In this document: piece after piece, positions 1-34,948 of the stretch | How the letters are laid out: each line of letters opens with the position of its first letter | Position numbering within the stretch: the first letter of the stretch is position 1 | From: Octopus sinensis | Lineage: Eukaryota | Direction: 5' to 3' | DNA: 34,948 nt | NCBI RefSeq assembly: GCF_006345805.1 | Contig: NW_021831661.1 | Coordinates: 1-34,948 of the forward strand | Position numbers and translations under genes: made by a program | Notes under the pieces: model-generated | The model's input: the letters and a program-made list of their open reading frames with translations, nothing else | Database searches by the model: none | What the model was told of the DNA's origin: nothing

Positions 1-513
1 TTGTTATTTTCTGGGTTTAAATGTGATGTCTTTAATGAGATTGGTAAGATCTTGTTCGAAATTATCTAAGTTACGCTTACGAAGTGCATATATAACGTTT
101 GTCTCTTAGTCTGCGAATTATCTTACATTCAAAAACATATAATACGTATGTATATATTGGTATATTGAAATGGGAAAAAATGTATATATGTATATTTGTG
201 CGTATATGTATGTATGCATATAAATATGTTCGTTACCAATATGTATGAAGAATAATATTGACATAACTATAATAACTCTATGATATATTGATAAACCGAT
301 ATTGATTGTAAAATTAATATACTTATATCTTTCATAAACATCTTTTTATATATTATATTATATTCTATATTTTATTTTTCATATACTATCAGTTGTAAAT
401 AGCAGAATGCACCTAATCTAATATTAATAATAATAATATTAGTAATAACTGAGTATTATATGTACTTATGGATGTAGATGTGTATGTATGTTTCAGTATA
501 TATTATATATATA

Positions 514-642
514 GAGTGGATGTATACTCACAACATGAGGGGTAAACAGCGGTGGTGTAATTCCCCTACGGGTGAGTCACGTTATGTTGACAGTATGCAA
601 CCACTCCTTCGCTCCACCACCGCTCATGTCTCTTTGAGACAT
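514..642. other. Putative structured RNA element (long stem, pseudoknot and terminal hairpin)
   Basis: Pairings read by eye: 514-528/592-606, 531-538/582-589, GGGG 539-542/CCCC 563-566, loop AGCGGTGGTG 548-557/CACCACCGCT 615-624 (pseudoknot), hairpin ATGTCTC 626-632/GAGACAT 636-642. GC-rich island in AT-rich DNA. Confidence 0.45.
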
Positions 643-681
643 TTAGAAATTTAATATTTCCAATTTATATATATGTATGTC

Positions 682-720
<39 letters not shown>

Positions 721-722
<2 letters not shown>

Positions 723-1557: not shown

Positions 1558-4500
1558 GTCTAGTGTTCGATTCGACACTCTTCCAGCAGCTCCTGCAACC
1601 AAGCTGGTGCCAAACGTAATGCTCTGCACTCCTTTGGACTATGTCAGCAAGGTCGAGAGAGGAATCCTGACGATTGGGCAACCAGGATTTTCATATTTCT
1701 AGCCCAGGCCTGCGCAAAACTGGAGAGGACACATCAGTGCTGCTGTAAAAAGTGGCAGAAATAACACGGGAGGTAACAGTCACGAGTGATAAGTCCATTC
1801 AGATTGGCGTAAGATATGGAAGCCACGGGACACCTCTGACGGTGGGGTGGACCTCCATGTCCCATTGGTTAGCTACTGCCTACCTGAAGCTAGGCAGCTC
1901 CCAGTTAATAAGTTGCTGACTCGCCACAGGCCGCCTGTTTCATTGGGTTCTTGGAGCTAAGAGTTTCACTTGAAAAACGGCCTGCAACCTCTGCACCAGG
2001 CAAACAACTAAAAGACAAGAAACCACCAGTCCTGCGGTTAGCAAGCTGGAATGTCAGGACCATGTGCCCTGGAATATCTGATGACCTACTCAGGGTTGAA
2101 GACACAAGAAAGACAGCCATCATTGACCGTGAACTAGAGAGGCTTAACATAGACATTGCTGGGTTGCAGGAGCCAAGACTCCCCTCAAACGGGAAAGTCA
2201 AAGAACAGGATTTCACCTTCTACTGAGCATCTATGCTCCCACTCTCTACGGGTCAGAGGAGACCAAGGACCAGTTCTACAAAGATCTCAACTGTGTCATT
2301 TAAAATATACCAACAAATGAAAACATCTACCTTCTGGGAGATTTTAACGCTCGCGTTGGATCTGACCATGATTCGTGGCCCATTTGTGTTGGATACACTG
2401 ATATTGGCAACATGAATGACAATGGTCAGAGACTACTAGAAATTTGCACATACCAAAACCTGTGCATCACCAACACATTCTTCGCCAACAAGACATCCCA
2501 CAAGGCATCTTGGAGACATTCAAGATCTCACCACTGGCATCAGCTGAATCTCATCATCGCACGAAGATCCTTTCTGAATTCTGTTCAACTGACCCGTAGT
2601 TACCACAGCGCAGATTGTGTCACACAGATCACTCACTAATTAGAAGGAGGGTGAGGATCCTGCCTAAAAAAGTCCATCACTCCAAGAAAATGTGCCGACC
2701 ACGCATTAACACTGCCAGAACCTCGGACCCTACACTGCGAAAATGTTTTGCTGTTTCTATCAAGGTTGCCCTCAGTAGCTGCCCAACCTCCTCTGCTGAA
2801 AGTAGGTGGAATTATATCAGGAAAGCTTTGTATACCACATCAATAGATACTTTCGGCATGAGAGAAAGGCAAAATCCAGATTAGTTCAGTGCTGGGCTCT
2901 CAGCTGGGAACAGTTATCGAAGCAAAGCGTGCAGCTCTGATGCAATACAAGAGTGATTCTTCTACAAAATCACTCGAAGAACTTAGAAAGGCAAGAAATA
3001 TAACCCAACTGACAGCCAGACACTGTGCAAATAGGTATTGGCAGAAAATCTGTCAGAGTATCCAGTCAGCTACTGACAGTGGCGATACCTGGTTTGAAGA
3101 AGGCCCTCGGTCCATCCGCAACTAGTCAGCCCCTCTGAAATCAACTACTGGAGATCTCATCAAGGACCAAAGGAAGCAAATGGATAGATGGGTTGAGTAC
3201 TACCAGGATCTCTACTCACGGGAGACCACGGTAGCTGAGACTGCAATCGAGAGTGTCAAGATCTTGCAAGTCATGTGCGAACTTGACAGTCCGCCATCTA
3301 TAGAAGAGCTATAGACGCCCTAGCAAGGGTATTGACACCTTAGCAAGTAGCAAGTCTCCGGGAAATGACGACATCCTCTCAGAGATCATCAAAGCCGGAA
3401 AAACCACAATCCTGCTTCGGTTACCCTCAGAGCTTCTGTGTCTGTGCTGGGAAGACGGTACAGTCCCTCCGGATATGCGGGATGCTAACATCCTTACGCT
3501 TTACAAAAACAAATGTGACTGTGGTGATTGTAACAATTACCATGGAATATCTCTTCTACGCACTGTTGGAAAGACTTTTGCTCGTGTTATCCTGTCCAGG
3601 CTACAACTCCTTGCTTCTCGAATTTATCCGAAATCGCAGTGTGGCTTTAGAAGAAGCATATCAACTATTGAAATGATATTCTCCATACGCCAACTCCAGA
3701 AGTCCAGAGAGCAGAAAATGCCATTATATAAGGCCTTCATTGATCTGACAATGGACTTTGACTTTGTAAGTAGAAAAGGCCTCTTCATCCTGCTCCTAAA
3801 AATCGGATGTCCACCAAAGCTGCTGAGGATTATCAAATCTTTCCATGATGATATGCAAGGCACCACACAGCACAATGGATCATCAGCCGCCTTCCAAATA
3901 AAAAACGGGGTAAAGCAAGGTTGTGTCCTTTTTCCTACATTATTTGGCACCTTCTCGATGCTGCTCTCACATGCCTTTCAGACATCAGATGATGGAGTGT
4001 TTCTGCAGAGTAGAAGTGACGGGAAGCTGTTCAATCTCTCGCGCCTGCGTGGCAAGACTAAAATCAGAAACGTCCTGATCAGGGAGATGCTATTTGCTGA
4101 TGATGCCGCTCTAGTATCACACACAGAAGAAGCATGTAACGACTTTGGCTTAGCTATCAGCCTTAAGAAGATCAACATCATGGGTCAGGCTACATTGGAC
4201 ATCACAAACATATATATTGGAGATTACAGATTACAGGAGGGGGAGAAGTTTACCTATCTCGGATCTACCGTCACCTACAACCTATCCCTTGACGCTGAGC
4301 TCAATATATGCATTGGCGAGGCAGCTTCTGTGATGGCCCAACTCTCCAAACGGGCATGGGACAACAATAAGCTGACCAAGAACACAAGAATGAAGATTTA
4401 ACAGGCATATGTACTTAGCCCTCTACTATATGAAAGTGAGACTTGGACGACATACACACGCCAAGAGCGTCGCCTAAATATCTTTCAGATGCGCTGCCTC

Positions 4501-5074
4501 CGGAAAATCCGTTGCATCAAATGGCAGAATTATGTTCCCAACAAAGATGTCCTCAGGCAAGCAGGAATACCAAGCATGTTTGCACTCCTCACACAAAGAC
4601 GTATGAGATGTCTTGGAAATGTTAGCCGTATGGAAGATGGCAGAATCCCCAAGGACATACTCTACGGAGAGCTTGCTAGGGGCACTAGGTCTGTGGGAAG
4701 ACCGTTCTTACGATTCAAGGATGATTACCAAAGGGACATGAAAGCCTACAACATCAATATTAGCTACTGGGAAGCAGTTGCCAGCAACCGTGGACTTTGG
4801 CGACGTACCGTAAAAGAGGGAACACAAAGGAGTGACATAGAGAGAAAGGAGAAATGGAAAGACAAGAAAAGACGTCAACAAGAAACTATGACATTACAAC
4901 CACTCAGGAAAAGTCTTAGCTACATCTGCGGTGCCTGCCGGAGGGAGTGTCTGTCCAGGATAGGACTACACAGCCACAGCAGGAGATGTATTAGGATATG
5001 AAATGTAAAAGCCGGACTAGATTATTTTATGCGCAACTCCATTGTCTCCCGACACAAAAATGATGCCAACAACA
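1558..5074 (+). mobile_element. RTE-clade LINE, near full length, inactivated
   Basis: APE endonuclease motifs (LASWNVRTM, IAGLQE, GDFNARVG), RT (GVKQGCVL, MLFADDAAL), C-terminal zinc finger (CGACRRECLSRIGLHSH), short (CAA)n tail, and 10-bp TSD ATTATAATTA at 1548-1557 and 5075-5084. Confidence 0.93.
1951..5001 (+). pseudogene. RTE APE-RT polyprotein, disrupted by stops, frameshifts and a deletion near 2226
   Basis: ORF pieces 1951-2226, 2412-2639, 2615-2884, 2889-3125, 3475-4401 and 4489-5001 are collinear parts of one RTE ORF. Confidence 0.9.
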
Positions 5075-5167
5075 ATTATAATTATCAGTGTAACAAATAA
5101 ATAAGTAAATATTTTAATGTCCTAAAGTTGATGAACCAACTATTGTTCTCCTCCATTTTCTTACTTG

Positions 5168-7536: not shown

Positions 7537-8257
7537 ATATGAATGAAGGTTTGAAAATGCAATTTTAAAAGATGTTTATTTACTTGACCGGTTTCACTCT
7601 TTTAGAAAAAGATTGTCAGAAGTAACATGTAAAAGCTTTGTTGTGTTTGGTACTGATTGTCTACAATACATACACACATTCCTTGATAAAGCATTGAACA
7701 TTTAGGTTGTATATAAATGAACAATGAGGGAGATATGTTTAGTTTGAACTGACCTGATTCACCATACTATCGTAAAAGCTTTTACGATAATATGGTGAAT
7801 CAGGTCAGTTCAAGCTAAACATAGCTCCCTCATTGTACATTTATATACTACCAAAATGTAACCTTTTTGAACTTATAATTTTCTGTGTGTATATATACAG
7901 ATACAATACCAATTTTCCTCTGAACTTTTTAATAATTCTTTCTGTAAGCTGCTTTTAACATTCTATTTTTATTATCAAAGAATGTATATATGTATTGTAA
8001 TCTTTTGTACCCAATATTTTAATGAACTTGTCAAATTTCTTTTATATTTTCACAAGATTTTCCCTTGTAACTGTGTTTAACATATTCTTATTATTATCAA
8101 AGTATGTATATATGTATTGTAATATTTTGTGACAACCAGTACCTAACACAACAAAGATTTTACATGTTGCTTTTGACAATTCTTTCTAAATAAGTGAAAC
8201 CGGTCAAGTAAATAAAGATTTTTTAACATTGCATTTTCAAACCTTTTTTCATATATA
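7537..8257. repeat. Fold-back palindromic element with a degenerate hammerhead in each arm
   Basis: Zero-spacer centre AAAAG|CTTTT at 7778/7779. Inner arms ~7701-7778 and 7779-7856 differ at about 6 positions. Outer arms ~7537-7690 match ~8090-8257. The right arm contains ~120-bp tandem copies. Hammerhead motifs at 7580-7625 (-) and 8167-8211 (+). Confidence 0.85.
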
Positions 8258-13559: not shown

Positions 13560-14306
13560 CAATGGATAGATAAAGAAGATTAGAAGCTACTCGCCAGAGG
13601 GTTAGGCACTATAGGCAGCGTATAAGAGAAGAACAGCGGTAAGAAACCAGAGAAAGGGACAAATGGTACCAACAGATTTGACAATCTGCAATAAATGAAG
13701 AGGAACGCAAGGCACAATTGTAGTGAGAGAGAATGGAAGACAAAGGTAGAAGACAGGATGAGGAAGAACAAACACAGTACAAGGAACAACAAAGATTGAT
13801 ATTTCTGCGGAGAATGGAAAACATGAAAGATATGCAGCGTGCGCAGTATCAGGACCAGCAAAAAAGCGTAATGTAACAGAGAAGGGAGAATATGGATGAT
13901 TTGGAAAGGGCTGCTTGTCTCCAAGGTCAAACAAAGAGACATCAAGATGGAGTTGCAAGTATGAATGCTGAACAGGCGTTACGTTTGCGAGATGAACAGG
14001 TGCAACGAAAGCGTGAAGGAAGACATGGACTACCACTGAACAGACACAATAATCCTAAACGAACCTATCGTATTGGTGATATGTACTTATATTGCGAGTA
14101 TTGTGGAGCACTGAACTTTAAATATGAAAACTTCATGTTCAGTCACAATAATAAAGTGAATTTTCCTCCACTGCAACTAAAACCTCAGACATTGAAGCGT
14201 TTGTCTGAGAAAATTACATCAGCAATTACAACTGCATACCTTCCTTTACGTCATTTGGTGTGAAACTCTGTGTGCCACAGGGAAGAGGTCTACATTGTTT
14301 CTGTAT
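13560..14306 (+). mobile_element. Helitron RepHel N-terminal relic
   Basis: Charged R/E-rich N-terminus, then IGDMYLYCEYCGALNFKYE...KVNFPPL and, after a frameshift, NYNCIPSFTSFGV...QGRGLHCFCI, matching the Helitron N-terminal Zn-finger/YNSxFAFxS-GxGPYxFxI pattern. Confidence 0.75.
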
Positions 14307-14468
14307 TGTTGTGGAAGGATTCCGACCACCTTCCAATTGACTAAACGCGAACTGACACATTCCTATTAAATAGACAACTGTCGAGTCTTCAGCAATTAAT
14401 TGGTAAATAGTTCACCGTGAGCCATTGACAGAGAGCGTTGGGTAATCGATTCGCGTCGTGTAAACACT
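14307..14468 (+). repeat. 5' LTR (recognisable part)
   Basis: TGTTGTGGAAGGATTCCGACCACCTTCCAATTGACTAAA...GCGTCGTGTAAA matches 18373-18557. Confidence 0.8.
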
Positions 14469-17400
14469 TTCTTTCCCCCTGATTCCTTAAATCATACGTT
14501 CCAAACCAAGTTTGCGTTGGATGTTTAAATTTGTTTGGGATGGGTATGAAACCAAAGAAAAATCGTTTAAGATAGAAGGCTTAATGGCATCTGTGGTGCA
14601 GTTGCAACAGCAACAATAGTAACAACAAGAGCAACTATAAAAGCAACAACAACAAAACCAATAGTTGCTGGAATTAATGTTAAAGAAGTCTAAAAATACT
14701 TCAGGCGTGAACTTGCCAGACAGCGTAGCAAACTCTAGTGAAGTATTCAGTTATAATCCAGAGGAAGGGATTACCTTCTCTGCATAATTTCGAAGATACG
14801 AAGAAATTCTCAAAGAAGAATTTAAAAATTGATCTGAGAGGAAAAATAGTACGACTACATTGTAAGACAGGTATCCCTTGGCAAATACAAAAAAATATAG
14901 TAATTATATTCTGCCGAAGAAGTCAGGTGAGATTTGTTTTAATAAAAACTATTAACCTATTATCAAATGATTTAGAACTGGACGAAAATTAACTCTACAG
15001 ACAGAAGCAGAAGAATGCTAGGAAATACGACGCAGAAAAAAAAGAAGAAAAAGATTGATCGCATATTCCAGTGTCTCCACCGTAACGGACAAGAAATAAG
15101 ACAAAAAATGTCAAGAAGGAGTCCATGTTGTGGTCTACATTTTAAAAGTAATTGCCCTTTAAAATCCAAAAACGAAATTTTATCAAAACGTTACAGTGAA
15201 AGAAGTTATCTGCTAAATACTTGAGGACAGTTTTTACATTTTGTCCAATAACATGAAGATTTCGTCACCTGTGCAGAGGATGTTAACGGAAAGTGTAAAA
15301 AATTCAAATCATATGAATGAAGATGATGTTCAAATGCATATTTCTTGTTTAAGGCCTAACTGCAAGCAAAGATGGAGATATATGTTCACGGATGTCAACA
15401 AAATTAGAACTGGACAAAAAGTAACTCTACAGGCAGAAGCAGAAGAATGTCAGGAAAGACGACGCAGAAAAAAATGAAGAAAACGACGCACAAAAAGAAA
15501 TTGAACAAAAAGATTGCTCTCATATTCCAGTGTCTCCACCGTAACAGATAAGAAATAAGAGAAACAAATGTGAAGATCGAATCCATGTTGTGGGTGCGGT
15601 GGTCAACATTTTAAAAGTAATTGCCCGTTTAAAAATATAAAAGGCGTCAAATGTGGCAAGAGAGAGATCATAAAAAAATCTCACTGTAGAACAAACCTGG
15701 AAAACAGTTCAACAGAAAGAAAACACGAAAACAGGTTATCGGTGACCAAAAAACGAACAGCCTCAAAGGAAATTTGTGGACGTAAAGTTGCAACTAGATA
15801 AGGGCAGTGATAATTAACACAGATACATAGAAAAAAAAACAGAAGACCTAGATTAAAAGACATTTCGAAAATTGCAGGTGGTATTTCAGGAAAATAATTA
15901 CATTTTAATGGCGTAATGATAAATCACGTTCCATTTCGTGGGAAAACCTTAAAAACCAAAGATTTTGTGTTGAATAATATCCCAAATTTATTCGGAACAC
16001 TGAATAGAATTGTTTAACTTATGGGAACTCCCCATAAATCTTTTCAGTAAAAATGTGAATGGTTTTCTTGCCAATACAAATGAATCGTCGGACGATTTGT
16101 AAAAATAATTTTAAAAGATTTTTCCTGAAGTTCTCTCTGATAAATTAGATCTCAGCATCACAACGAAAACGAAGTTCCAAGTAAAAGTAAATGCCAAACC
16201 GGTATTTAAATATAAACGAACTGTAACTTTTGCATCGTTGGAACAGATAAACTTTTGCAGCGTTAGAAACAAATAAACAAAATCAGAGTGTATGCTGATT
16301 TTTTCCACTCGTTTAAATGAGTGTCTTAAAACGTTCCACTATCCGCTACCTACCCTGGGGGATATATTTGCAAAATTAGACGGTGGCAAGGTATTTTCTT
16401 AATTGGATCTCTCTGACGCGTACCTACATATTAGCGTAGACGATGAATGCTATAAATACCTAAAAAATTAACGCACATATATATATACAACAGGTTACTG
16501 TATGCCTTTATGTCACACCGGCGATTTTTCAAAATATTATGGATGCAGTGTTAGCGGATAGTGAATATGCATTTCCATATCTGGATGATATACTCATTGA
16601 AAGCGAATCACGGGATCAACATGTAGATCACATAATATATATGTTCGAAAAAATTAGGGATTACAGTGAAAAAGAAAGCGTGAATCTTCTTCTTAACGAA
16701 AATAAAATTGGACAAACAATTGAAAGAAATGGACGAGGACCAGATCCGTTGAGGGCAGACGCAATTAAATACATGCCCCCCTCCGACAAATATAAGGACC
16801 TTACATGATTGCTTTGGAGACAGGCAAATTATTACCAAAATTATATTCTAAATATTCAGAGGGTAAGTGTTACAGTAGATTATGTATTTAAAAAATGTCA
16901 ATTGAAATTGCTCTGAAAATTGTCAAAGGGAATTCGACGAAATTTTAAAATATTAACATCTGATTTGTTGTTAGCACGCTTCGATTCTGTAGCGGAGAAT
17001 TTTGTAACTTCAGATGCCTCTGAATACTGAATCGGTGCAGTAATGCCACATAAATAAAAAGATGGTAACATGAAGGCGGTGGTTCATGATATCAGCAGAA
17101 AATATTACAGCCAAATCAAAAAAGAAGCTCATGTAATTATTTATGCCGTAAAAAATTGCATAGATTTTTACACGGCAGAAGTTTTTGAATACAGACAGAT
17201 CATCGTCCGTATTATCAGTATATGAGTAAAAGAAATAAATGTCTAGCCGTACTGCTAATAGGCTGCAGCGCTGGGGTACTGTATTATTAAACTATGAATT
17301 TAAGATAGAGTATATGCCATCTAAAAAATTAGGACACGCTAATTGTTTATCATGACCGATTTCAGAAAATGCTGAAGCATTTGAAGATACCGTGTTTGCT

Positions 17401-18372
17401 ACTTTGCGAGCGGAAAATGAAATTAAAAGCAAATTGTATAACTCAATGCGTGGACTGCTATTTACGTTACAGGACATAAAATTACAATTGGGAAACGATA
17501 TATTCATTAAAAAATGAAAGAAATGCAGAAGTGTTAAAGAGATGAAAAATATTCGAGCCTATCACAAGGTGTGACAATGTGCTGATGTATGCACAAAGAG
17601 TCGTGGTGCCAACCACACTACAAAAGCAATTACTAAAGGAATTTTATATTGTGTCAAAGGGATTTCGATAATGAAATCGTTAATGAGAAGTTAGGTATAC
17701 TGGCCAACAACGGACTGTAACATTGAAGATATAGTGATAGTATGCAATACGCTGTTCTCTAGCTCCAAATACACCCGTCACAAAATGGCACCCGTGGCTA
17801 AAATCACTTAAGGTTTCATATCACTTTGTTGTGGGGGACTGTTTTTCAACGTGGTCTGAAGTGCATAAATGTAGAAAGCCGACATCTCTGGTTACAGAGA
17901 TATTTGATGTTTGTTAGAATAATCAGATCCATCTTTGATCAGCCGATACCGAGTGAAAATATTAAAAAAGGAACAATATTTCAAAATTCTTCAAGTTAGG
18001 AGACAAAGTTTTTTAGAAAACCTATACATAGAGTAAATAAGGCTGGGAGGATGGTACAATTATTAAATAAATTGCAAGAATGATATTCCTGGTAAAAGGT
18101 GAAACAAATTTCGAACATAAAAGACTTATTAACCAACTTAAAACCTGATTCAAGGAAAAATCAGAGAAAAGAAGTGAATTTCTCATGAAAGTATTGCACG
18201 ACACGTTTGAGGTACCAACACAGAAACAATTTGTAATTACACGTTCTAGCACCAGAAAACGAAACGAATGGAACACAAGAATTGAGCCCTAAGCATAAGA
18301 GATATTAAAACTCAGAGCGATTTTTATTCTCAAGTGGAGAATTTAGGGGAGACTAATTCTATAAAGGGGAGA

Positions 18373-18580
18373 TGCTGTGGAAAGATTCTGACAACCTTCC
18401 AAGTGACTAAAAGTGATCTGACACATTTCCATTACATGGAGAACTGTCTAGTCGTAAGGAATTGATTGTGAACAATTGATTGGTAAGCATTTCCCTATGA
18501 TCCGTTGGCAGAGAGCGTCGAGTCTCATGTAATAGTGATCGTATTGCGTCGTGTAAATAGCTTCGTTAAATTATATATTC
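18373..18580 (+). repeat. 3' LTR
   Basis: Follows the PPT and is homologous to 14307-14468. Its 3' end is uncertain and merges into Helitron sequence. Confidence 0.8.
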
Positions 18581-18685
18581 AGACTTCCACACTGCCATAT
18601 GCTCGTAAACAAAGTGAAGATCAGAGATGATATAGACAGAATGGTAACAGCAGAAATTTATGATTCAAATGATGGTCCCAAATGA
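18581..18685 (+). mobile_element. Helitron Rep (HUH) fragment
   Basis: Translates RLPHCHMLVNKVKIRDDIDRMVTAEIYDSNDGPK*, matching Rep motif 2 (GLPHxH) and the downstream DIDxxIxAEIPD motif. Confidence 0.75.
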
Positions 18686-18688
18686 AGC

Positions 18689-20090
18689 CTTAGAGTTACT
18701 TGACATAAACTTAATTTTATTGGAATTGACTTCAGATACAATAACCTTGTTATTGATATTTCTAGAGGGTTGGATGTTATTAGCTAAATTAATGTTAGTA
18801 TTAGTAAGTGTATACAAAGCGAATGAAGGCGGATAACCCTTATTTAATCCCCTATTATCGATCTAAAAGTAAATATAACACCTTCAACGTAATTACACTA
18901 TGAATACAAGTAAATATATTTGGTTAATAATTCCTTACGGAGACAAATTAAATCTAATCTCCCACTGCTGTTTCGTCAAGCTATTGCTAGGAATTTTCCA
19001 AACAATTCTAGATATTACTCTATAATCAATTCACATAAGGTTAGGATAGGTTTTTCAAACACAAATAATCACTTGCAAATTATATCTTCTCATAATAACA
19101 AACTGTTAAATATTAATACACTTACTAATACTAACATTAATTTAGCTAATAACATCCAACCCTCTAGAAATATCAATAACAAGGTTATTGTATCTAAAGT
19201 CAATTCCAATAAAATTAAGTTTATGTCAAGTAACTCTAAGATTAAAAATTCTATATACCAGTGTATAATCAGTACTCGTAATAAAGTACGATTTTACATT
19301 GGAAGCACATCGTTAGAGTTATCTAAAAGAATTTCTATCCATTACTCAACGTTTAGGGATAGAAATAAACGGAATAGTACCGGTCTCAGCAAACTGATTT
19401 GGGATTTAAAAGACCACAATGAACAATTTCATTTAGAATGATTGATCCTCTCAATTTCGATACCATATAACAAAGGCAAGAAATTCTGTCTTCTCTGCAA
19501 TTCTGAGCTATTTTTCATTATTTTTTCTAAAAATACTCTAGTAAACACGGTTATAGAACGAGCATGCAGATGTAAGCATTGGCAAAAACATACATTTAGT
19601 GCATATAAGTAGTCTCTATCATTATATATAATTTAAATTTTAATTTCCTTTATCTTTAACATTCGCTATTAATATCCCTACTCTTTCTGTTAGCTACTTA
19701 TGACGTTATATCATATAGCGTTTTTTTAAACAATGTTAATAGCGTTCTGTCTATCGCTATAACAAATCCATCATGTTTTGCTAAAATGTCTTATTGACGA
19801 GTTTCGTTTTTTTCACTTTCCTGAGGAGAAGATTGCATTGTTTATACCATTTATTCTTTTGAATAGTATCAGTGGAATTTTCGAAACATGTGTCGAAAGT
19901 AAAAATATTTGATTACACATGCGTTAACTCCATTTTTTATTCATATTATTCAAAATATTCAACGTAAACATGAAGTTTCTACCTTTATAAACAAGGAGTT
20001 ACAACACCTTTACTTGTGAGATTTTTGCTGCCCTGGTAACTATTTATTTATTTTCTCCGTGTTAATTGTTAACAAGGTAAAATTACACTC

Positions 20091-20188: not shown

Positions 20189-20274
20189 TTGGCTGATGAG
20201 TACTCTGCATCTTAAATCTGTTTTAATACTTACAACATTTAATAAAATGATGTAGTACGAAACGATCGTACCAA
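20189..20274 (+). ncRNA. Minimal type-I hammerhead ribozyme, intact core
   Basis: TTGG-CTGATGA-GTACT...AGTAC-GAAA-CGATCG-TA^CCAA. Palindromic helix III, GUA triplet (cut after 20270). Confidence 0.85.
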
Positions 20275-20608
20275 ATTACCGGTGTCATACTTGGTGCTTA
20301 TTTTGAGTATATATAATTATAATTAAATCCTTAAATCCTTAAAAATGTTTTTGCATGAGTAATCATTTTTCTCTCCTCCCTGTTTTCTTCTTTCTTTTCT
20401 CCTACTTTCTTTTCCCTCTAAGCAGTTATGAAAGCGAAAGCTCATTAGGTCGCTTTCTCTAAAGAGGAACGCAAAATTTCCACGTTCATATTTGAATCTT
20501 TTTCATGTCTGCAGTCTTATTTGTATTTTATTCGTTCCCCAACTAGATGGCAATATAACAACATGCCAGATGACACTCGAAATTTTTAGTCACACACAAC
20601 TTTATCGA

Positions 20609-20710
20609 TGTGCCTGATGGGATCCAGACTGATCGATGCAGCACAACACGTTGAACAGAGTCCCACACATAAAGGACAATAGCAAGACGGGTCGAAACGA
20701 TCGTTGTACA
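20609..20710 (+). ncRNA. Minimal hammerhead with one core substitution (A9G)
   Basis: TGTGC-CTGATGG-GATCC...GGGTC-GAAA-CGATCG-TT-GTACA. Confidence 0.65.
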
Positions 20711-20790
20711 GAATAAAATTAATACCAGATCCATCACTTCGTTACTTAATATAATTATATATACACAAATACATACAAATAAACAAACAG

Positions 20791-20959: not shown

Positions 20960-22730
20960 TAGGTGGGCTGGCCTGTGAAACCCATCGACAAAGCAATTTT
21001 CTAGACATCTTACTGAAACCCTTGCTGAAATACATCAAATTTTTCATTAGGGAAAAAACAATTAATGAAGAGGCAATATTGGTTTCCCTCGATGTTATCA
21101 ATCTTTACACCAACATCTCCCATGACTTTGGAAAAAAGCAATTAAATTCTGGTTGGAAAAGTACTCCCGGAATGCATAAGCTAGATGTTTATAATGAAAT
21201 CCTGAACATTTATACTTCAGAACAATTATTTCCTATTTGATGACACATACTATCATCAGAAATGCGGAAGTGCGATGGGGACGAAAGCAGCTCCGGTTCT
21301 TGCGAACCTAATAATGGGTTATTTTGAATTCACCTTATATGAAGAATCACTTCAGAAATATTGTTAACCATTTTACCTCTACATAAGAGAAAATTGGAAG
21401 AGATACCAAGATGACTGCTTTATCATCTGGAGGGAGAACATCGACAAACTCTTGGATTTCAAATCAACACTAAATGACATAAATAGTAACATTCAATTCA
21501 CAATGGAATATAACAAAGAATATCTCCCATTTTTAGACGTCATGATAAGAAAAGTTAACAATGAAATCATAACTGACATTTATTATAAACCAACTGATTC
21601 AAAACTATATCTTCTGAATTAGACACGAAAACACTAAGAACAAGAAAACATAACACCACAACTCAACTCAAAACATTACTATTTATATCAACACACAACC
21701 ACAGAAACAGTAAAGCATTCAACACTATTTGCAAATTCTTCCTTTGCTTAATAGAGATCCAAAAATGAACGACATCCTGAAAACAGAAACTCATCAAATG
21801 CAAACAGCAAGACAAATCGCTAAAGAGACTACTAACAAATGCAAAGCTTTACACAACAACCACGAAACCACCGGTTGAAAAATGTGGACGCCCAACTGTG
21901 GAAACTGCCCCAACCTGCTTCAAGGCTCGGATTTCCTTTTCAAACAAGGAGAGAGGTTCAAAATTAAAACTAGTTTCACTTGTGCCTCTGAGAACCTAAT
22001 TTATTTAATAACATGCTCGGTTTGCGGACACCACTATAGTGGACAAACGAGTATGACCTTGAGAAAGAGAACCACTCAACATAAAAATCAAATCCGTTTC
22101 CCGGAATACTGAAAATTCCTCTCAGTGAACATATAGAAAAATGTGCTGGTAACATCAAACCAAATTTCACTGTCTTACCTTTTTACCAGTGAAAAGATGC
22201 AATCTCTCAACTAGAGCGTTTAGATAAAGAAACTTTTTTCATTGAAAAATACAAAACTCATCTTAATATCCACGCATAACCAACGTGTATCTTTTTACAC
22301 ATTTCAATTTATGATAACATTACAGTACATAAATCCCCTACTAAACAAGGTTTTTGAAACTTGTGTCTGTCAGTACGCATATATAAATCCCCACCTATTA
22401 CCTAAAGCTGAACTGTTATCTCCCTTACCTACAACAATAACAATAATAACGGCAACCAATTACCGCCCTTTATTTACCTACTTGTGAAGTCATTCTCTCG
22501 TGAATTTCTTCACACACAATATGGACAAAATTTCTTCTTAAAAAAATATATATTCAAATAAGTAAAACATAATATCATGAATAGCGATATCGAAACCGGT
22601 CGAAATATTAAAAATTATATTAAAACTATGTAAGTGTTCGTATTTTCCTTTTTTAATTTCTCAAATAAATTACAACTCACAACGTGGGGATAAGCGGTAT
22701 TCCTCTTTTCTGTTTCTACAACTACTAATA
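20960..22730 (+). mobile_element. Penelope-like element (Neptune-like), decayed RT plus GIY-YIG
   Basis: RT: LVSLDVINLYTNI, CGSAMGTKAAPVLANLIMG, WKRYQDDCFIIW, LPFLDV, YYKPTD. CGRPxCxxC-type Cys linker (frameshifted). EN: NLIYLITCSVCGHHYSGQT. Partial hammerhead GAAACCGGTC at 22592-22601. Confidence 0.9.
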
Positions 22731-22746
22731 TAAATATACATTTCTC

Positions 22747-22830
22747 TCTATATATAAAACTGAGAATGCGTGTCTATCTGTCTGTGTGTTTCCCTAAACT
22801 TGAGAACTACACAACCAATTTCATTCAAAC
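22747..22830 (+). mobile_element. Possible Helitron 5'-end fragment
   Basis: TCTATATATAAAACTG...GTCTATCTGTCTG...ACTACACAACCAATTTCATTCAAA resembles non-autonomous Helitron 5' termini as I recall them. Confidence 0.4.
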
Positions 22831-22943: not shown

Positions 22944-23114
22944 ACCTATTTATATAGGTTATGAGAGGTAATGGTGTCAAGGAGACCCAAATGTGTCAGG
23001 TAATGATGAGTAAGTGCTATGGACAGACTATAGTTAAGCTCCAGGTTCGGTGATTATGCAAATGAGGAGTCAAACGTAGGTCATATATTAACATGCATAT
23101 ATATAAAATTAACA

Positions 23115-23381
23115 GAATGAAATTAAGATCCAAGACTGTGGAAGATTTCAGGACATTTCTAGAGAGAATACTTTACAGCTGTTTCCGGGATATTTATGTA
23201 TCTCTTCATCGGAGACGGTGCGAGAAAATGATTAAGCAATAGATATTCTAGAATAACTATTGGTTAACCATTCTCTCACACCGTCATCGATGAAAGAATA
23301 TATAAATATCCATGGAACCGCTAAAAGACCTCTCTATAAATGCTCTGAAATCTTTCACAGCATTGGACTTTTATTTCATTC
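23115..23381. repeat. Old fold-back palindrome with a degenerate hammerhead in each arm
   Basis: Zero-spacer centre TATTCT|AGAATA at 23249/23250 with diverged arms. Minus strand of the left arm reads CCGATGA...GAAA-CAGCTG-TA; the right arm reads TCGATGA...GAAC-CGC-TA. Confidence 0.75.
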
Positions 23382-23527
23382 AGATATATATATATATATA
23401 TATATACATACATACCAATACATATATATATATATATATATAATATATATGTACGTATAAGTGCAAATGTATGTGGCTATCTATGATTGTTTACGAATTT
23501 CATTTTCAAATTTCTCAATCTCGAATT

Positions 23528-25323: not shown

Positions 25324-25934
25324 CTGACTCGTGGCCGTGGTACGTAAAATACTCCAATGTGACCGTACGACAGGCACCCATGCCAACCCCCTTTGCTTGT
25401 GAAGACATGTTGGGGCAAGCGAAATCGAAATAGAATTGAACCAGCCAGGATCCCTGGTCTGGTGGTACGTAAAAAGCACTATCCGACTCGTGGCCGTGGC
25501 ACGTAAAATACTCCAATGCGACCGTACGACAGGCACCCATGCCAACCCCCTTTGCTTGTGAAGACATGTTGGGGCAAGCGAAATCGAAATCGAATTGAAC
25601 CAGCCAGGATCCCTGGTCTGGTGGTACGTAAAAGGCACTATCCGACTCGTGGCCGATGCCAGCACCGCTTCGACTGGCTTCCGTGACGGTGGCACATAAA
25701 ATACACCAATCTGACCGTGGCCGTTGCCAGCCTCGCCTGGCACCTGTGCAGGTGGCACGTAAAAAGCACCCACTACACTCACGGAGTGGTTGGCGTTAGG
25801 AAGGGCATCCAGCTGTAGAAACATTGCCAGATTAGACTGGAGCCTGGTGCAGCCTTCTGGCTTCCCAGAACCCCGGTCGAACCGTCCAACCCATGCTAGC
25901 ATGGAGAACGGACGTTAAACGATGATGATGATGA
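25324..25934 (+). mobile_element. Non-autonomous retroposon (family C) with internal 159-bp tandem duplication and (GAT)n tail
   Basis: Units start at 25326, 25485 and 25644. Conserved block GGAGTGGTTGGCGTTAGGAAGGGCATCCAGCTGTAGAAAC. 3' end CATGCTAGCATGG...(GAT)n. A second copy lies at 29584-30368. Confidence 0.8.
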
Positions 25935-26761
25935 TATGTACATACATACAGAAATGCATACACTATATATACACTATATAAATACGGGTGAATGTGGTTT
26001 TTATGTGTTTTTAGAGCTACGAGACTCTGAAACTTTGCGTCCTCGAGTAAAACGAATTTGACTTTTGAAATCCGATTTCCAAGGTAAACATCGTCCATAA
26101 AATATAATAAATATCATAATCCTCCACGTGAAATAACCCAACTTTGAGATCTCAACCTCCCACTCTATATCTTTCACTACCCATGTATCTTATATTAGCC
26201 ATACTATTTGATGCTCTCTCTCTCTCTCTCATCTCTCTCTCTCGGCTCGCTCTCTCTCTCTCTCTCTCTCTGTGAATTAAAAACCAATCATTGCTTTCAT
26301 TTTGTTTAAAATCTCTCCAACTTCTACTTATGATACAGTGTTCACACACAACACTTAGCTTCCAAATCTTGTTTTCTGGGTAAAAATGATAAAACTTCGA
26401 ACCTCTGATGTGTTTTCTAAACTTTTTCTCGAATAAACGAATAGATTTCAAAATTTCCACATACTTTTCAAATTTCAAATTCTGTGACACAAATCGAAAA
26501 GTTCGCTCTCTAATTGCTTATTTCTTTTCATTTCTCATAGTAAACCTTCTCACACATTATGAAAGTTTACCGCTCACACTAAGTGCATGTCGTGTTCCCA
26601 ATGTGTGTCGTGTTCCTAATACATATATATAGGTGTGTCTGTGCGAGTGCCATTGTGTCTGCGTGTGTGGATGTAAGAATGAGTGCGTATTTTTGTGCGT
26701 TATTGTGTGTATACCTATGAGCATAAGAATTATATTCATATACTTAAATATATATATATAT

Positions 26762-29096
26762 AAAACTTAGATAAAACTTAGATATGTTTCGACCAGAGAT
26801 TGGTCCAGCCATGTCTAACTTAATAGCACCACCTGATAGGATTATTCGAATCCTGTTTAAGTCAAGTTTTGTTCAAGTAGTGAGTTCTTGTTGGGTGAGT
26901 TGTATCCAGTTTTGTTCAAGTAGTGAGTTCTTGTTGGGTGAGTTGTATCCAATTATGGGTGGCTTATCTGGTATTCTTTGAAGGAATCTATCCAGACTCT
27001 GTTTGAAGTTGATGGGATCCTTTTCCTCTTTGATCTCCCTCGGGACAATGTTAAATAGGGCAGGGCCTGTTGAGGAAAAGAAATTATGTTGCAGTGTACA
27101 TGTATGTTGTGATCTTGAATTTGGCAGGGGACGTATAGCCCGTGGTCCAAGTCTCGGATGGACCTTGAAGCTAATGTTTAGGTCGTTTGGGCAAAGTTGG
27201 CGGTATATTTTCCACATCGTACAAATGATGTACCGCTCACGGCGACGCTGGAGGGAGTAAAGTTTCAAGGCTTTAAGGCGATCCCAATAGTCCGAGCAGC
27301 ATGCCTTCAATTTGTTTAGTGAGAGCCCTCTGGGGTGACTCAATTCTGGAGATGTTGTGTCTTGTGCGAGGAGACCACAGTGGGCAGCAGTATTCAAGGT
27401 GTGGCCGTACAAAGGATGAAAAAAGTGGTATGATGAACACTTGTTCTCTGGACCGGAAAGTCCTTAAGATCCAGGAACTCATCCTACGAGCTGTATCGAC
27501 CTTCTTGTTGATGTGTGCACTCCAACTGAGATCGTCATCAACAATTACACACCAGGTCTCTGATATTGTTAGAGGCTGTGAGCGGTTCCCCTGAAGGAAG
27601 AGAGTATGGTTGTTTTAGTGAGGAGTTTCTTCCAAAATGCATCAGCTCAAATTTTCCCTCATTCAGTTGCATTTTGTTTCTGTCTGCCCATTGACTCACA
27701 GCATATAGGTCAGACTGGAGTTGAGTTCGGTCTGCTTCTTCATTGACGATTTGCTGGAGCTTAGTGTCATCAGCGAATATTTTCACTTTGCAGTGATGTA
27801 CGACACTGGAAAGGTCGTTTACATAATTATGAAGAGTAGCGGACCCAAAACAGTTCCCTGGGGAACACCGCTGGTGACTTTTGCTCGGTTTGAGTGGACT
27901 CCATCAACTACAACATGTTGTGTTCTATTCGCTAGGAAATACTGAATCCAGTGTAGAACTTTTCCACGGATTCCACATTTGCCAATTTTGAGAGTAGGAT
28001 GTTATGGTCTACCCTGTCGAACGCTTTACTGAAGTCAAGGTATATGACGTCAGAGTTCGAACCTGTTCCCAAGGCTTTGAGTACATCTTCAATGTGGTGT
28101 AAGAGCTGTGTTAGACAGTCCCTGCCACAGCGAAGCCATGCTGATTTGAATTTAGGAGTTTGTGGGTCTCCAGGAAGCCAGCTATCCTTGATCTTAACAC
28201 TCTTCAAACACTTTAATGATGGGGAGGTGAGTGAGATTGGGCGATAGTTGACTGCGAGGGATCTGTTTCCCTGTTTGAAAACCGGGATGACCGACTGGAA
28301 TAGAACATTTTCGGTATATAACCTGCGTCTAACGAGTTTCCTCCAGAGGTTGGTCAGAGGGACTGCAAGTTGATCTACATTCCTTCAGAGACTGGCGGGA
28401 AATCTATCAGGGCCTACAGCAGAGTAATGTTTGACCTCATTTATTGCTGCTACGATGTCGGTGGCAGTGAAGGTTATGTCTGCGATTTTGTGTTGGGAGT
28501 CAGCTTCGTTCGTTTCCCTCACATCACAATATCAGTGGGAACACTGAAGACAGAGCAATATTGTTTCTGCAGTATTTCTGCCATTTCTTTAGCATCGTGT
28601 TGGGGAATGCCGTTTCATCAATCAATGGCCCAATAGGTGAGACAAGTGGTTCTATGCTTATTTGCATAAGAATAGAACACTTTTGGGTTCTGTTTGATGT
28701 TTTTGATTACCCATTGTTCCTCCACAGCTCTTTGATTTTCAATGGAGGTTTTCATGTTAGTCTGCAGATGAAGTTTTTCCAGCTCTAGTCTTTTCATTGT
28801 TGTTGAATGTGGATGTTGCGTGTGGGAATATTTTAATTGGTTGATTTTTTTGTTGAGTCTTTTGATGCGCCTGATGAGTGTTTTTTTCTTTTTAGGGAGC
28901 CGGTTTCTGTTTTGTTAGTAGATTTCTTGGGAGCGTGTTTAGAGCATGTGTCGGTGACAAGGTTTCAAAGTGCTGCCACGCTGTCTCAATATGAGGGGAA
29001 TTGAGAGTAAAAGACCAGTCGATGGAAGACAGATCCTTTCTGATTGTTCCCCAGTCCGCTTTGTGGAAATTTATGTTGTCAAATGGGTGCCATGGA

Positions 29097-29293: not shown

Positions 29294-29403
29294 AGACCTG
29301 AAGAGTAGCTATGTATCATTGGATCGAAGAAATATTAATTTTTCAGATAATCAATTTTGATAATGTCGATATTACTATATCGTCACGAAATGCGCCTCGT
29401 CGA
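29294..29403 (+). ncRNA. Minimal hammerhead ribozyme, core intact, stems eroded
   Basis: AGAC-CTGAAGA-GT...AC-GAAA-TGCGCC-TC-GTC, inside an AT-rich unit bounded by (TA)n (~29235-29530). Confidence 0.6.
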
Positions 29404-29525: not shown

Positions 29526-29579
<54 letters not shown>

Positions 29580-29583
29580 TATA

Positions 29584-30368
29584 TCATCATCATCATCATC
29601 ATCATCACATTTAGCGTCCGTTTTCCATGCTAGCATGGGTTGGACGGTTCAACTGGGGTCTGGGGAGCCCGAAGGCTGCACAGGCCAGTCAGATCTGGCA
29701 GTGTTTCTACAGCTGGATCCCTTCCTAACGCCAACCACTCCGAGAGTGTAGTGGGTGATTTTATGTGCCACCGACACAGGTGCCAGACGAGGCTGCGAAC
29801 GGCCACGCTCGGATGGTGTTTTTATGTGCCACCGACACAGGTGCCAGACGAGGCTGGCAGACGGCCACGCTCGGATGGTGTTTTTATGTGCCACCGACAC
29901 AGGTGCCAGACGAGGCTGGCGAACGGCCACGCTGGATGGTGTTTTTATGTGCCACCGACACAGGTGCCAGACGAGGCTGGCAGACGGCCACGCTCGGATG
30001 GTGTTTTTATGTGCCACCGACACAGGTGCCAGACGAGGCTGGCGGACGGCCACGATCGGATGGTGTTTGTTACGTCCCCAAAGCACGGAGGCCAGTCTAT
30101 GCGGTACTGGCTACGGCCCGTTCGGATGATTTTCTTGTGTGCCACCGGCACTGGTACCACAAAGATGCAAATTCCATTTATGTTCATCTATTTTGATTTG
30201 TTTTGATTTGATTTGATTTTCACTTGCCTCAACAGGTCTTCACAAGTGTCACAAGAAGGAAGGTATGCACAGGTGGACTGACTACGTCCCAGGTAGGGGC
30301 CACGGGTTATGGCCTGACTAGTCTTGCCGGTCTTCGGATGGTGTTTTTATGTGCCACCGACACAGATG
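29584..30368 (-). mobile_element. Family C retroposon with internal ~61-bp minisatellite
   Basis: Reverse-complement match to 25680-25934 including the (GAT)n tail. Five ~60-62-bp units at 29759-30066. Confidence 0.82.
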
Positions 30369-30454: not shown

Positions 30455-30601
30455 TTGAGTAGTTGAATGAATTATCTTATTAAGGATAATTCGAAAGATA
30501 ACCGATACCAGGGTAGCAAATTCACATCAGAAAGAACACGGTTGAAGCTACGTCCGTAGGGTATAGACTACGTGCTTTCGTGCTGAAGTTGTATGTTTAT
30601 T

Positions 30602-30724
30602 TTAAAAATATATAAGTATATGGAAGAATGGAGTTGAACGACTGGTTAACAAGTATCCTTTATTCTCGACGTATGTTGAACCTGTCGTTCAACTCCATTC
30701 TTTCATATACTTATATATTTTTAA
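30602..30724. repeat. Hairpin with ~50-bp arms and ~22-nt spacer
   Basis: Perfect core GAATGGAGTTGAACGAC/GTCGTTCAACTCCATTC, extending outward to TTAAAAATATATAAGTATATG/CATATACTTATATATTTTTAA. Confidence 0.9.
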
Positions 30725-30961
30725 TATATGTATATATATATATACATGCACACGTATGTCCATGCATACCAGTATATATCATATATATATACTCACACAC
30801 ATACATATATATATAGAGAGAATATTATCTTCCAATTATTCAAGTCATTAATCAGCGACCATCCTGGCAACCCTCCTAGAAGTTATTTTATTCGAATATA
30901 TTCTCCACAGTATTTAAATTTTGAAAGTCTGTTACTTATTATATCGTTTCCTTTGAGGAAC

Positions 30962-32469: not shown

Positions 32470-34898
32470 CATGTTTCTTTATTAGCCACACAGAGCTGCA
32501 CACAGACGTGAAAGATTACAAGGTAAAGAGAGCTTTCTTTTTTAGGAATTAAGGTAGGGTAGGTTTTCGATAAAAAGTAATCGTAAAAGAGAATAAAGAC
32601 AAAGAAAAAAAGGAAAAGAAACAAAAGAAAAAATCGATCAATATGGATTGTGTATCACAGTGTCATGATGTAAGGTGTAAAGGGGGAAGCAGATAAGTTT
32701 TATTCGTGGGAATAAAAGCCTACGGAAAAGACCACGGTAACCTCGGTCAATATTGTTACATGTTACCACATTTGTTTTCAAGTAACCCTCACTTTTGATT
32801 TCCAGTTTCATAGGATTATGCTCAAGCTGGCTTCGTTTTTCATACGAGCCATCCTTGTTACATTCACCCATCTTTTTAAAACATTCGCTAGACAAAACTT
32901 GCCTCTCTACTCTCTCTCTTTCCTTTTCAAATGATACTTGAAGATGTTGATGACCAGAGAGGAAAGTGTTTGTCTCCAATACTTTCAGACGCGTCCACCA
33001 GTTACATTATTTTGCCATATGATGGAAGTAGCTCTTCCTTCCTGTTTGAAGGGAGGAGGCGTGACAATATTGACGATAGACTCGGCTGATAAATCGACTC
33101 GTCCCACACGTGACAGCAGTTGTTCGACATAAGCCCACAGGTCGGAAATGGTTGGATAGTACACGAGAGTGAGCAGAACAGTTTCGTCGCTCTGACCGCA
33201 TCACGGGCAGGTCGGCCCCGTGTTCCTCGAACCGTGTCTGTAGAGCTTATCCCGAAGAAGTAGCGCTTCTCGGTAGCACTGCCAGGCCAGGGATCTCTGG
33301 AGGTTGTCAATTGGCCCTGGCCCGAAAGTCGTCCTGAACATGCGGGTCACGTATTCCTCGTCGACGTCCAGGTTCGCCCCGAGCTCGTCGTCGTACCTAC
33401 CCTCCACTAATCCCCTATAGAATGCTTGGGTTGTGGTGAAGTCACTCATGGTCGACCCGGGACGGCATAGTTGCTTGACAGCAACGCGACACTGGCGGTG
33501 CCATTCGCTCTTTCTCGGCCTCTTTTTGATCCACGACTGCAGTTCGGTCATGGAGGCGAGTTGCCGAAAGCGTGCCTCAGAAACAGCGACCACACCTGTT
33601 CACCGTCGTCTACATAGACCCTGAGATGTCGCAGTCTAAGCGAGTGTCTGTGCATCATCAAACACGGCATGCCCAGTCCTCCTTTTAACGGGTGTTGACT
33701 GCAAATGGATCGCCTGACCATCGGGACGCATCCTTTCCACAAGACGCGAAAGAGAATACGCTCTAGATTGGTGATGGTAGGGTCGGGACAAGGCACGACG
33801 GTCAGACGGTAGTAGATGACGTACGCGATGTACGAGTTGGCCACCTCCACCCAAACTTTTAAGGTTTTTCTTCTCGGCCCATTGCCGGGCGAGAGTGACC
33901 ACCCTACTCATTATCTCGTTCTAGCTCTTCTCCATTTGGAGGTCCGGAACAACCAGACCCCGAAAAACTCGACCGGACAGTCGGTCCAGCGTCCCACGAC
34001 GGAGGTGCTGGTGGACGGCATGGGCTTGCTCCTCCAGGTACCGAGTCGCAAACCCACTTGTTTTTCCCGGTTGATTTTCGCTCCTGTCAGTATCGATGGT
34101 CTACCCTATCCAAAGCTTTCGATTGATCCAAATTGATCAGCGCCCCACCCATGCCAGGTTTCTTAACTACCCTGTCTATGATGTAGCACATCAGGTGTAG
34201 GTTGTCATTGATGCTCCGGCCCGGCACGGCGCATGTTTGCGCCTTGTCGACCAGTTTCTCGATAACAAGCGCCAAGCACGTTGCTAACACGTTGAACAAA
34301 ATTTTCAAGTGATGGGCCTAAAGTTATCTATTACATTCCCCTTGTTTAGATCTTTCTTCAGCAGAGTTACGGCTCCTCGGATAACAAAACCAGGAATGCT
34401 CCCGTTTTGCTACCAGTTGCAGTACACCGCTGCCAAGACGTCTCCAAACAAGTCTGGCATACAACTGTAAAGCTCGTAGGGTAGACCAACCAAACCCGGC
34501 GACTTGTCACTCGAGCATTCTGCGATCGCGTCCCGCACTTCCGCCGCCTTGATGTCACCTTCGCAGCGCCCTGCCTCTCTTGTCGAGAGTCGTGGTATGC
34601 TGTGTAGGTAGGCACTGAAGTCCACCCTACGCTCTTGCCTGCCACTCGTCCCGAACAGTCGGGCAAAATGCCGTTGGAAAGCGTCACACATTTTACTTGA
34701 CTCGAGCAATTCGCGCCCCTGTTCATCTACGAGAGATTGAATTGTGGGTTTATTGCCCTGTTGCGCCTCTGCCACCCGGGCTTCCCTCGCGGCTCTAACA
34801 CCTTCGTTCCTTAGAGCACGCACCCTAGCTGTGACAACACACCCTTCGTGTTTCGCGTTGAAGTGTTGGTCGGGAGCCAACACGCCGCCAAAACGTCG
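32470..34898 (-). mobile_element. L1/Tx1-clade LINE, 5'-truncated, with RT-core deletion
   Basis: KSPGLVGLPYELY, GRSINDNL, LDQSKALDRVDHRY, deletion near 34087 jumping to TGAKIN, then KGGLGMP and the CP*CG zinc-knuckle region. AATAAA just before the 3' end. GC-rich relative to the host. Confidence 0.88.

Positions 34899-34948
<50 letters not shown>
34899..34948. repeat. (GATA)n microsatellite at the LINE 5' junction
   Basis: Directly visible and runs to the window edge. Confidence 0.97.

Follow-up and report, generated by a model that had tools for sequence, protein, structure and literature searches.

The foldable segment at 514-664 of an Octopus sinensis contig is probably the truncated end of a retrotransposon with an inverted duplicate

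The segment 514-664 of Octopus sinensis contig NW_021831661.1 (positions 1 to 34,948; this whole stretch of 34,948 nucleotides is called the window here) probably represents an octopus retrotransposon end that was truncated, an ordinary repeat insertion and not a new ribozyme. The reading that we favour, at slightly better than even probability, is a small head-to-head insertion in a TA tract, probably of a Penelope-like element (PLE). It would consist of a 5'-truncated element 3' end and a 25-nt inverted copy of part of it, the helices of the repeat family likely being a recognition or start signal for the reverse transcriptase (RT). A repeat family, an inverted copy, TA runs at both outer ends, outlier letters in the window copy and a deleted form are observed; the element class, the strand, the order of events and RT binding are inferred.

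The preliminary description had drawn a pseudoknotted RNA-like structure at 514-642, whose helices were located in the sequence (Table 1). The outer stem of about 23 bp (514-538/582-606) pairs at 22 of 25 positions, with 20 Watson-Crick and two G-U pairs (523-597 and 537-583) and mismatches at 520, 529 and 530. It had been called G-U-compatible, which holds for the existence of the two G-U pairs, but 523-597 is private to the window copy. The inner GGGG (539-542) and CCCC (563-566) lie where they had been placed, the 10-nt complement downstream of the loop is exact, and 626-632/636-642 pairs fully as the 7-bp hairpin, with the start of the (TA)n tract about 22 nt further on. Position 628 of this hairpin varies in 12-39% of depth, while its partner 640 is absent among the 40 of 122 variant rows listed. 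The position of the structure had been likened to that of the hammerheads in other units; this likeness is loose, the structure ending about 22 nt before the TA run as against 114-276 nt for the cores of those units.

Table 1. Coordinates of the segment, its helices and its flanks in the window
Feature	Positions	Strand	Basis or remark
TA-rich run, likely left half of the microsatellite target	498..513	.	sequence
Outer stem, 5' arm (582-606 copied in inverse orientation)	514..538	-	20 of 25 Watson-Crick in the window copy; abuts the TA run with its outer end
Piece of a highly repeated family, putative retroelement 3' end, 5'-truncated here	539..664	+	variant contigs, piece starts
GGGG/CCCC stem (539-542 / 563-566), extendable by 538-567	539..566	+	putative pseudoknot, crossing with the 10-bp helix
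10-bp helix, 5' strand	548..557	+	closes the predicted nested fold of 539-664, both strands
10-bp helix, 3' strand, AC-rich	615..624	+	exact reverse complement of 548-557
Hairpin A (562-565/570-573)	562..573	+	majority letters pair over 4 bp, the window copy over 3 bp; competes with GGGG/CCCC
Hairpin B (573-579/588-594)	573..594	+	perfect 7 bp with majority letters, 4 of 7 in the window copy; rival pairing to the outer stem
Hairpin C, perfect 7 bp	626..642	+	loop position 634 variable
AU-rich terminal hairpin	643..663	.	8 bp including G-U on minus; 5 bp on plus
(TA)n tract, likely right half of the target	666..721	.	sequence
Decayed Hydra-like PLE ORF N-terminus, runs off the left edge	7..178	-	profile search; part of the same low-copy composite

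The helices exceed chance modestly. Folding of 505-650 gives z values of -2.68 on the plus strand and -1.71 on the minus strand, with 3 and 10 of 200 shuffles equally good, while 539-664 alone reaches -4.0 on minus (0 of 200 shuffles) and -2.5 on plus (1 of 200). Perfect helices of at least 10 bp are found in 43 of 5000 shuffles of 514-642 and in 91 of 20000 shuffles of 539-664, and the combination of such a helix with a separate 7-bp hairpin in 2 of 20000 shuffles of the latter. A crossing 4-bp helix made of GC pairs only occurs in 9 of the 91 shuffles that already hold a 10-bp helix, so that the pseudoknot crossing weighs little as evidence.

The folding programs used deal with nested structures only, pseudoknots being outside their models. 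In these models the GGGG/CCCC pairing has a probability of 0.37 in 505-664 and of 0.0 in 539-664 alone. Without the 5' arm, 539-664 is predicted to fold in a nested manner on both strands, with the 10-bp helix at a probability of 0.86-1.0. When the majority letters of the family are used, hairpins B and A form 7 of 7 and 4 of 4 Watson-Crick pairs, respectively, and the 10-bp helix is able to enclose both without any crossing. The structure proper to the family is likely a nested 10-bp helix that closes two hairpins and is followed by the 7-bp hairpin. The structure drawn earlier does not look like that of the family: its 5' arm was seen in no more than a composite of low copy number, and competing hairpins arise with the majority letters. 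No variant of the letters of 548-557, 615-624 or GGGG/CCCC is found among the 40 of 122 variant rows listed, so the pseudoknot is neither broken nor supported by covariation; the check for compensatory changes in the crossing helices used variant letters that came from contig comparison, unlinked to one another.

Family members were sought in contigs of 4 of 24 public runs (X1, X3, X4 and X11, from three studies, with organism labels A, B, C and D), which were aligned to 1-664 at 80% likeness; the counts given rest on 40 of 122 variant rows and on 32 of 19641 pieces. The segment is not single-copy, 539-664 being multi-copy in the contigs of all four runs compared. Many variant contigs are found across 539-664 in each run, and in the rows listed variant letters at single positions are carried by 23-76 distinct contigs per run (23-32 for the non-window letters at 573-575 and 46-76 for those at 607-608). 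The window copy stands apart from the other copies. At 573-575 it differs from 95-99% of the depth in all four runs, and other letters account for 97-99.8% of depth at 597, 607 and 608. Its letters at 573-575 form a small palindrome and look like the outcome of a single template-switch event.

Two layers can be distinguished in these contigs, a low-copy composite covering about 7-565 at high identity, bridged by contigs 425-531 and 434-565, and a far more diverse family covering about 539-664. Eleven of the 32 listed pieces (of 19641) enter 539-664 and 10 of these 11 start at 538-578; the majority of listed pieces end near 538-556 through the end of the contig. Record 13 of X11 continues past 539 with 106 further letters that have no likeness to the window. 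Summed contig depth, which is not copy number and provides a hint only, rises 5-16x from 553-575 to 622-644, and at 534 it amounts to only 0-11% of that at 553-575; the zero cover of X4 at 534 is a hole that carries no evidential weight. One X1 contig is likewise AT-rich immediately after 664, hinting that this position may be the natural end of the family. A search for a second copy in the window gave a best local alignment score of 41, as compared to 37-51 in 60 shuffles, and the look-alike at 22675-22705 was rejected, lying outside the top six local alignments. Exact probes of 18-19 nt found 2 viral and 14 metagenome matches, all due to chance and with unlike flanks, and longer exact probes had 0 matches in the contigs from metagenomes, genomes and viruses.

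The 5' arm of the outer stem is not family-wide, and among the pieces listed a single composite of low copy number carries it. It is continuous into the core in one listed piece (X11 record 12, 434-565), and the X11 depth at 534 (33.1) comes wholly from that single contig. Position 528 is joined to 618 across a 3-letter repeat in two contigs of X1 and one of X3. A form of the composite without 529-617 therefore exists, in which the pseudoknot core is gone and the sequence from 618 onward is retained. The sequence 512-538 is complementary to the majority letters at 23 of 27 positions, those at 597, 607 and 608 being the ones that improve the outer stem. Such an improvement fits an inverted copy of the ancestral sequence, but fits a true RNA stem equally. 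The majority letters that follow 606 (607-609) give a 3-nt match to the TA run 498-513. The long outer stem is likely the product of a local inverted duplication, that is a DNA by-product; fold-back repair would give the same inverted-copy picture as PLE insertion.

The insertion that we favour would start with the element endonuclease nicking the (TA)n target. The nicked end would prime reverse transcription near 664 and synthesis would halt early. A second copy or fold-back synthesis would then add 582-606 in inverted orientation, and the inverted copy would join the target through a 3-nt microhomology of TA type (majority letters 607-609). In this scheme the last ~50-125 nt would be an RNA signal that is bound by the RT and used as start, and not a ribozyme.

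Several traits of PLE insertions are recognized here. The sections of PMC8557442 used describe PLE insertions in which the 5' end often bears a 5'-truncated copy in inverted orientation and the tail is often confined to one of the two ends; (TA)n is given there as the favoured target of Naiad and Hydra elements. TA runs are found at 498-513 and 666-721, and 514-538 is such an inverted copy when compared to 582-606. The likeness to the PLE ends reported in those sections, including Hydra, Naiad and Neptune (PMC8557442), lies in (TA)n on both sides, a head-to-head inverted copy and unequal sides, and PLE remnants adjoin 514-664. The differences are that the piece of 126 nt lacks a hammerhead and that the putative tail, the direct copy 607-664 that continues beyond the end of the inverted copy, is ~58 nt. 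Two points count against our reading: this tail is longer than the 30-40 bp given in the same source, and 607-664 is the most widely covered part of the family whereas a tail should be optional. The parent element, which was not found, may be a PLE or another LINE that targets (TA)n, probably a Penelope-like one. The earlier proposal of a retroelement end in a PLE-rich stretch is most likely right. Its extension to a PLE lineage lacking hammerheads does not follow, because the family piece has only 126 nt and in the neighbouring units the hammerheads are 114-276 nt away from the ends.

For the Poseidon PLE, the portion of PMC11167929 consulted describes in vitro nicking of AT-rich DNA and reverse transcription starting inside an AC-rich stem-loop, hammerhead cleavage being dispensable. 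The stems near the end of 539-664 are AC-rich, as in the Poseidon PAc stem-loop for RT initiation (PMC11167929). The sense strand of the family is uncertain because the minus strand folds better and carries the Hydra-like ORF remnant; the plus strand is held to be the sense strand with a modest preference.

An RT ORF had been suggested as something to look for upstream. A PLE ORF remnant is indeed near, but it is Hydra-like, lies on the minus strand and is directed away from the structure. When the N-termini of 54 Hydra-like PLE proteins are used as a profile, the best match of the window is at 75->7 (16.1 bits, i-E 4e-4), with weak collinear matches at 178->86 and 124->80; the next site scores 2.8 bits and 20 shuffles reach at most 10.6 bits. 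The 33-aa minus-strand peptide alone had only five matches, to repetitive unrelated proteins, and a PLE fragment close by shares 77% identity with an Octopus sinensis protein across one third of its length. The remnant at 7-178 is at most a candidate parent of 539-664. The Hydra-like N-terminus at 7-220(-) apparently misses ~65 nt between two motifs, an arrangement common to contigs of three runs, and the composite therefore looks non-autonomous or segmentally duplicated.

The suggestion that the structure might be a ribozyme found no backing in motif searches of both strands, which gave no sign of catalysis. The whole-window search detected no Rfam 15 family at 514-642 up to E 5, which agrees with the earlier assumption that no known family applies, and on 500-666 the best matches had E values of 7.6 and 8.8. 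As had been described, the segment is devoid of a hammerhead core: CUGANGA is absent from both strands of 480-700 even when one mismatch is allowed, and GAAA occurs only at 646(+), 660(-) and 494(-), outside the junction, so hammerheads were rejected. A hammerhead combines CUGANGA, or the U3-A8 variant of this core, with GAAA at a three-way junction. The reported misfit to the HDV fold was also borne out, with no convincing P1 (6-7 bp ending in G-U), P1.1, P4 or catalytic junction. On the plus strand there is an HDV-like P2-P3-L3 register with 548-556, P3 at 557-559/567-569 and a 7-nt pyrimidine-rich loop at 560-566. The descriptor is loose and has low weight, yielding 126 overlapping matches on plus and 103 on minus, and its P1 requires the private letters of the window copy, three G-U pairs and one mismatch. 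The HDV consensus has conserved L3 residues and a catalytic C in J4/2. Compared to this consensus, the loop and the segment before 616 do not have the conserved catalytic residues in the sequence from 539 on. In twister ribozymes the L4 motif pairs with the GA-GGG strand; a GAGGG is present at 537, yet there is no L4 motif and no Rfam match, and twister was discarded.

Other known RNAs and elements were likewise dismissed. ARAGORN predicted 0 genes and the Rfam search no tRNA family, and a tRNA or the head of a tRNA-derived SINE was rejected. A SECIS fit was rejected, and a by-eye candidate for a decayed hammerhead at 276-302(+) was unsupported. The LTR, PBS and PPT of Helenus/Ajax TRIMs, in the features given in the part of PMC10886601 used, were not seen by eye. 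The minus strand has, by eye, an A-box-like stretch at 620-610 and a splice-donor-like hexamer at 531-526.

Known retroelement ends provide partial parallels. The 3' UTR of A-clade R2 elements, as presented in the portion of PMC12180492 consulted, resembles 539-664 in that a stem comes after a possible pseudoknot at the extreme 3' end of the element. It differs in length (65 nt versus ~105 nt here), linker (6 nt versus 1 nt) and target (rDNA versus (TA)n), and the pseudoknot of 539-664 is without covariation support and in competition with hairpin A. HDV-like ribozymes of R2, RTE and L1Tc share the P2-P3-L3-like register on plus, but they sit at element 5' ends in the accounts taken from PMC6765202, while 539-664 is a putative 3' end. 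Several cores of the minimal hammerhead type of PLE pLTRs (described in the excerpt used of PMC4209133) lie elsewhere in the window and none in 480-700. The octopus Naiad ends in the files seen of PMC8557442 differ from 539-664 by eye, and six probes run against the Naiad, Chlamys and Hydra files of that paper found only GC-rich chance matches. The 3' ends of Naiad_Obim and Naiad_Ovul in the supplement of PMC8557442, as far as viewed, have a GC-rich segment in which a pseudoknotted, permuted hammerhead-like fold is possible by eye, and Naiad_Ovul is listed there as HHR_half_core. By eye, these Naiad ends, unrelated in sequence to 539-664, would be the stronger candidate if a PLE ribozyme of non-canonical type is sought.

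Other explanations of the segment were weighed against the favoured PLE-type insertion. It is doubtful, though it deserves some attention, that 539-664 is the 3' UTR end of a Dong/R4-type LINE, which has a restriction-like endonuclease, or of a SINE borrowing it, the GGGG/CCCC stem and the 10-bp helix then being a real pseudoknot that with hairpin C would make an RT-bound pseudoknot-hinge-stem; the inverted arm is still treated as a by-product. Dong/R4 elements target microsatellites, and overlapping inverted duplicates are not known to be typical of Dong/R4-type LINEs. The two crossing helices have no variants among the rows listed, the order of pseudoknot, short linker, stem and short tail is that of avian/turtle R2 3' UTRs in the extract of PMC12180492, and Dong/R4 contributes the most recently active LINE insertions of O. 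vulgaris (1129, from the part of PMC13282606 used). The same CCCC is however taken by hairpin A of the majority sequence, a crossing GC helix arises by chance in about 1 in 10 cases, an ORF link is missing, and the overlapping inverted duplicate is typical of PLEs in the sections used of PMC8557442. A conserved 3' pseudoknot-plus-stem, or one that alternates with the nested fold as a switch, acting as RT-binding/initiation module of a microsatellite-targeting PLE, or else a non-hammerhead ribozyme, is unlikely and has no positive support. More improbable is a minus-strand RNA in which 664->539, two hairpins and a cloverleaf-like domain, would belong to a Hydra-like PLE as its structured leader or as part of its pLTR, 538->514 being its tail and the outer stem a real RT-initiation stem. 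The better folding on minus (z -4.0), the G-U of the terminal hairpin that exists on this strand only, the 628 variant that would form a G-U on it, the Hydra-like ORF remnant at least 330 nt downstream and the contigs bridging 425-531 and 434-565 all agree with it. The tail of a family should nevertheless show many independent flanks, while no flank of the arm other than that of the composite was seen; neither ARAGORN nor Rfam identifies the cloverleaf as a tRNA, and no hammerhead is found although Hydra pLTRs reportedly always carry a canonical one (consulted part of PMC8557442).

The segment might also derive from a DNA element that is non-autonomous (Helentron/HINE-like or MITE) and of which it would be one end, with 548-557/615-624 as subterminal inverted repeats and hairpin C as terminal DNA stem-loop, which is very improbable. 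Helentron/HINE ends have subterminal inverted repeats, a 3' stem-loop, a TT target and an autonomous Rep/Hel partner. Short inverted repeats with a hairpin ~20 nt from the end in AT-rich DNA would suit such an end, as would the widest coverage of its end-most part, but a second end, a transposase or a helicase was not seen, and TA runs at both outer ends together with an inverted truncated copy fit PLE-type insertion better. The least probable of these explanations is a self-cleaving ribozyme that replaces the hammerhead in a PLE lineage, either a deviant HDV-like one whose P1 5' strand, upstream of 539, was lost, or a new class. It would make use of the plus-strand register (548-556 then 557-569) and of the frequent presence of ribozymes at retroelement ends (PMC6765202, in the part used). 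It is opposed by the looseness of the descriptor and the makeup of its P1 (private letters, three G-U, one mismatch), by the absence of the catalytic residues of the HDV consensus and of such a match in Rfam to E 10, and by the existence of the composite form without 529-617.

The notion of an undescribed structured RNA is upheld in so far as no Rfam match and no description of the 539-664 end were found in the literature searched; curated octopus repeat libraries may already catalogue the family. Its most striking stem is likely explained by inverted duplication. Probes against supplements of PMC8557442, PMC13282606, PMC8967140 and PMC9115989 (files 1-4 of 8) found nothing relevant, and sequence probes in paper text only two unrelated papers. 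On the reading favoured here, the case is a caution that inverted copies generated by insertion mimic long RNA stems. The end of the family nevertheless shows more structure than expected by chance, and its copies are very numerous. The choice of RNA start site by PLEs is documented in one in-vitro system in the portion consulted of PMC11167929, and a high-copy cephalopod family is therefore good material for covariation and TPRT tests. If true, a 3' pseudoknot-plus-stem module or a non-hammerhead ribozyme would be a first for the PLE group, with a counterpart in A-clade R2 3' ends.

Several PLE remnants occur in the window, and their hammerhead-like cores are situated 114-276 nt ahead of TA runs. 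At 18600-20090(+) lies the C-terminal half of a Hydra-like PLE (88.6 bits), with a hammerhead-like core at 19821 and a 125-nt internal inverted duplication (18689-18813/19116-19240, 99%). Hammerhead-like cores with an unusually long stem II are found at 20193-20290 and 20608-20711(+), the latter scoring 20.3 bits to Hammerhead_1 where the gathering score of 34 is not reached, and a third core at 29298. A decayed PLE of a different clade, with RT and GIY-YIG, occupies 20960-22750(+) and shows by eye a degenerate minimal hammerhead at ~22575-22605 and a possible splice donor at ~22630.

Further repeats are present. A near full-length decayed RTE-like LINE at 1560-5075(+) has a GC-rich 5' leader, which by eye could presumably hold an HDV-like ribozyme, for which Rfam gave no match. 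By eye, and beside (GATA)n, there are putative remnants of an LTR retrotransposon at ~14300-18600(+), a CR1-like LINE at ~26700-29090(-) and an L1/Tx1-like LINE at ~32500-34900(-). A related repeat is found in opposite orientations at 29543-30159 and 25326-25984, with internal tandem units of 62 bp and 159 bp. Long palindromes at 7698-7859, 23097-23399 and 30598-30728 are 77-93% complementary and probably MITE-like or inverted PLE ends; the one at 7698-7859 has a below-threshold match to a miRNA model.
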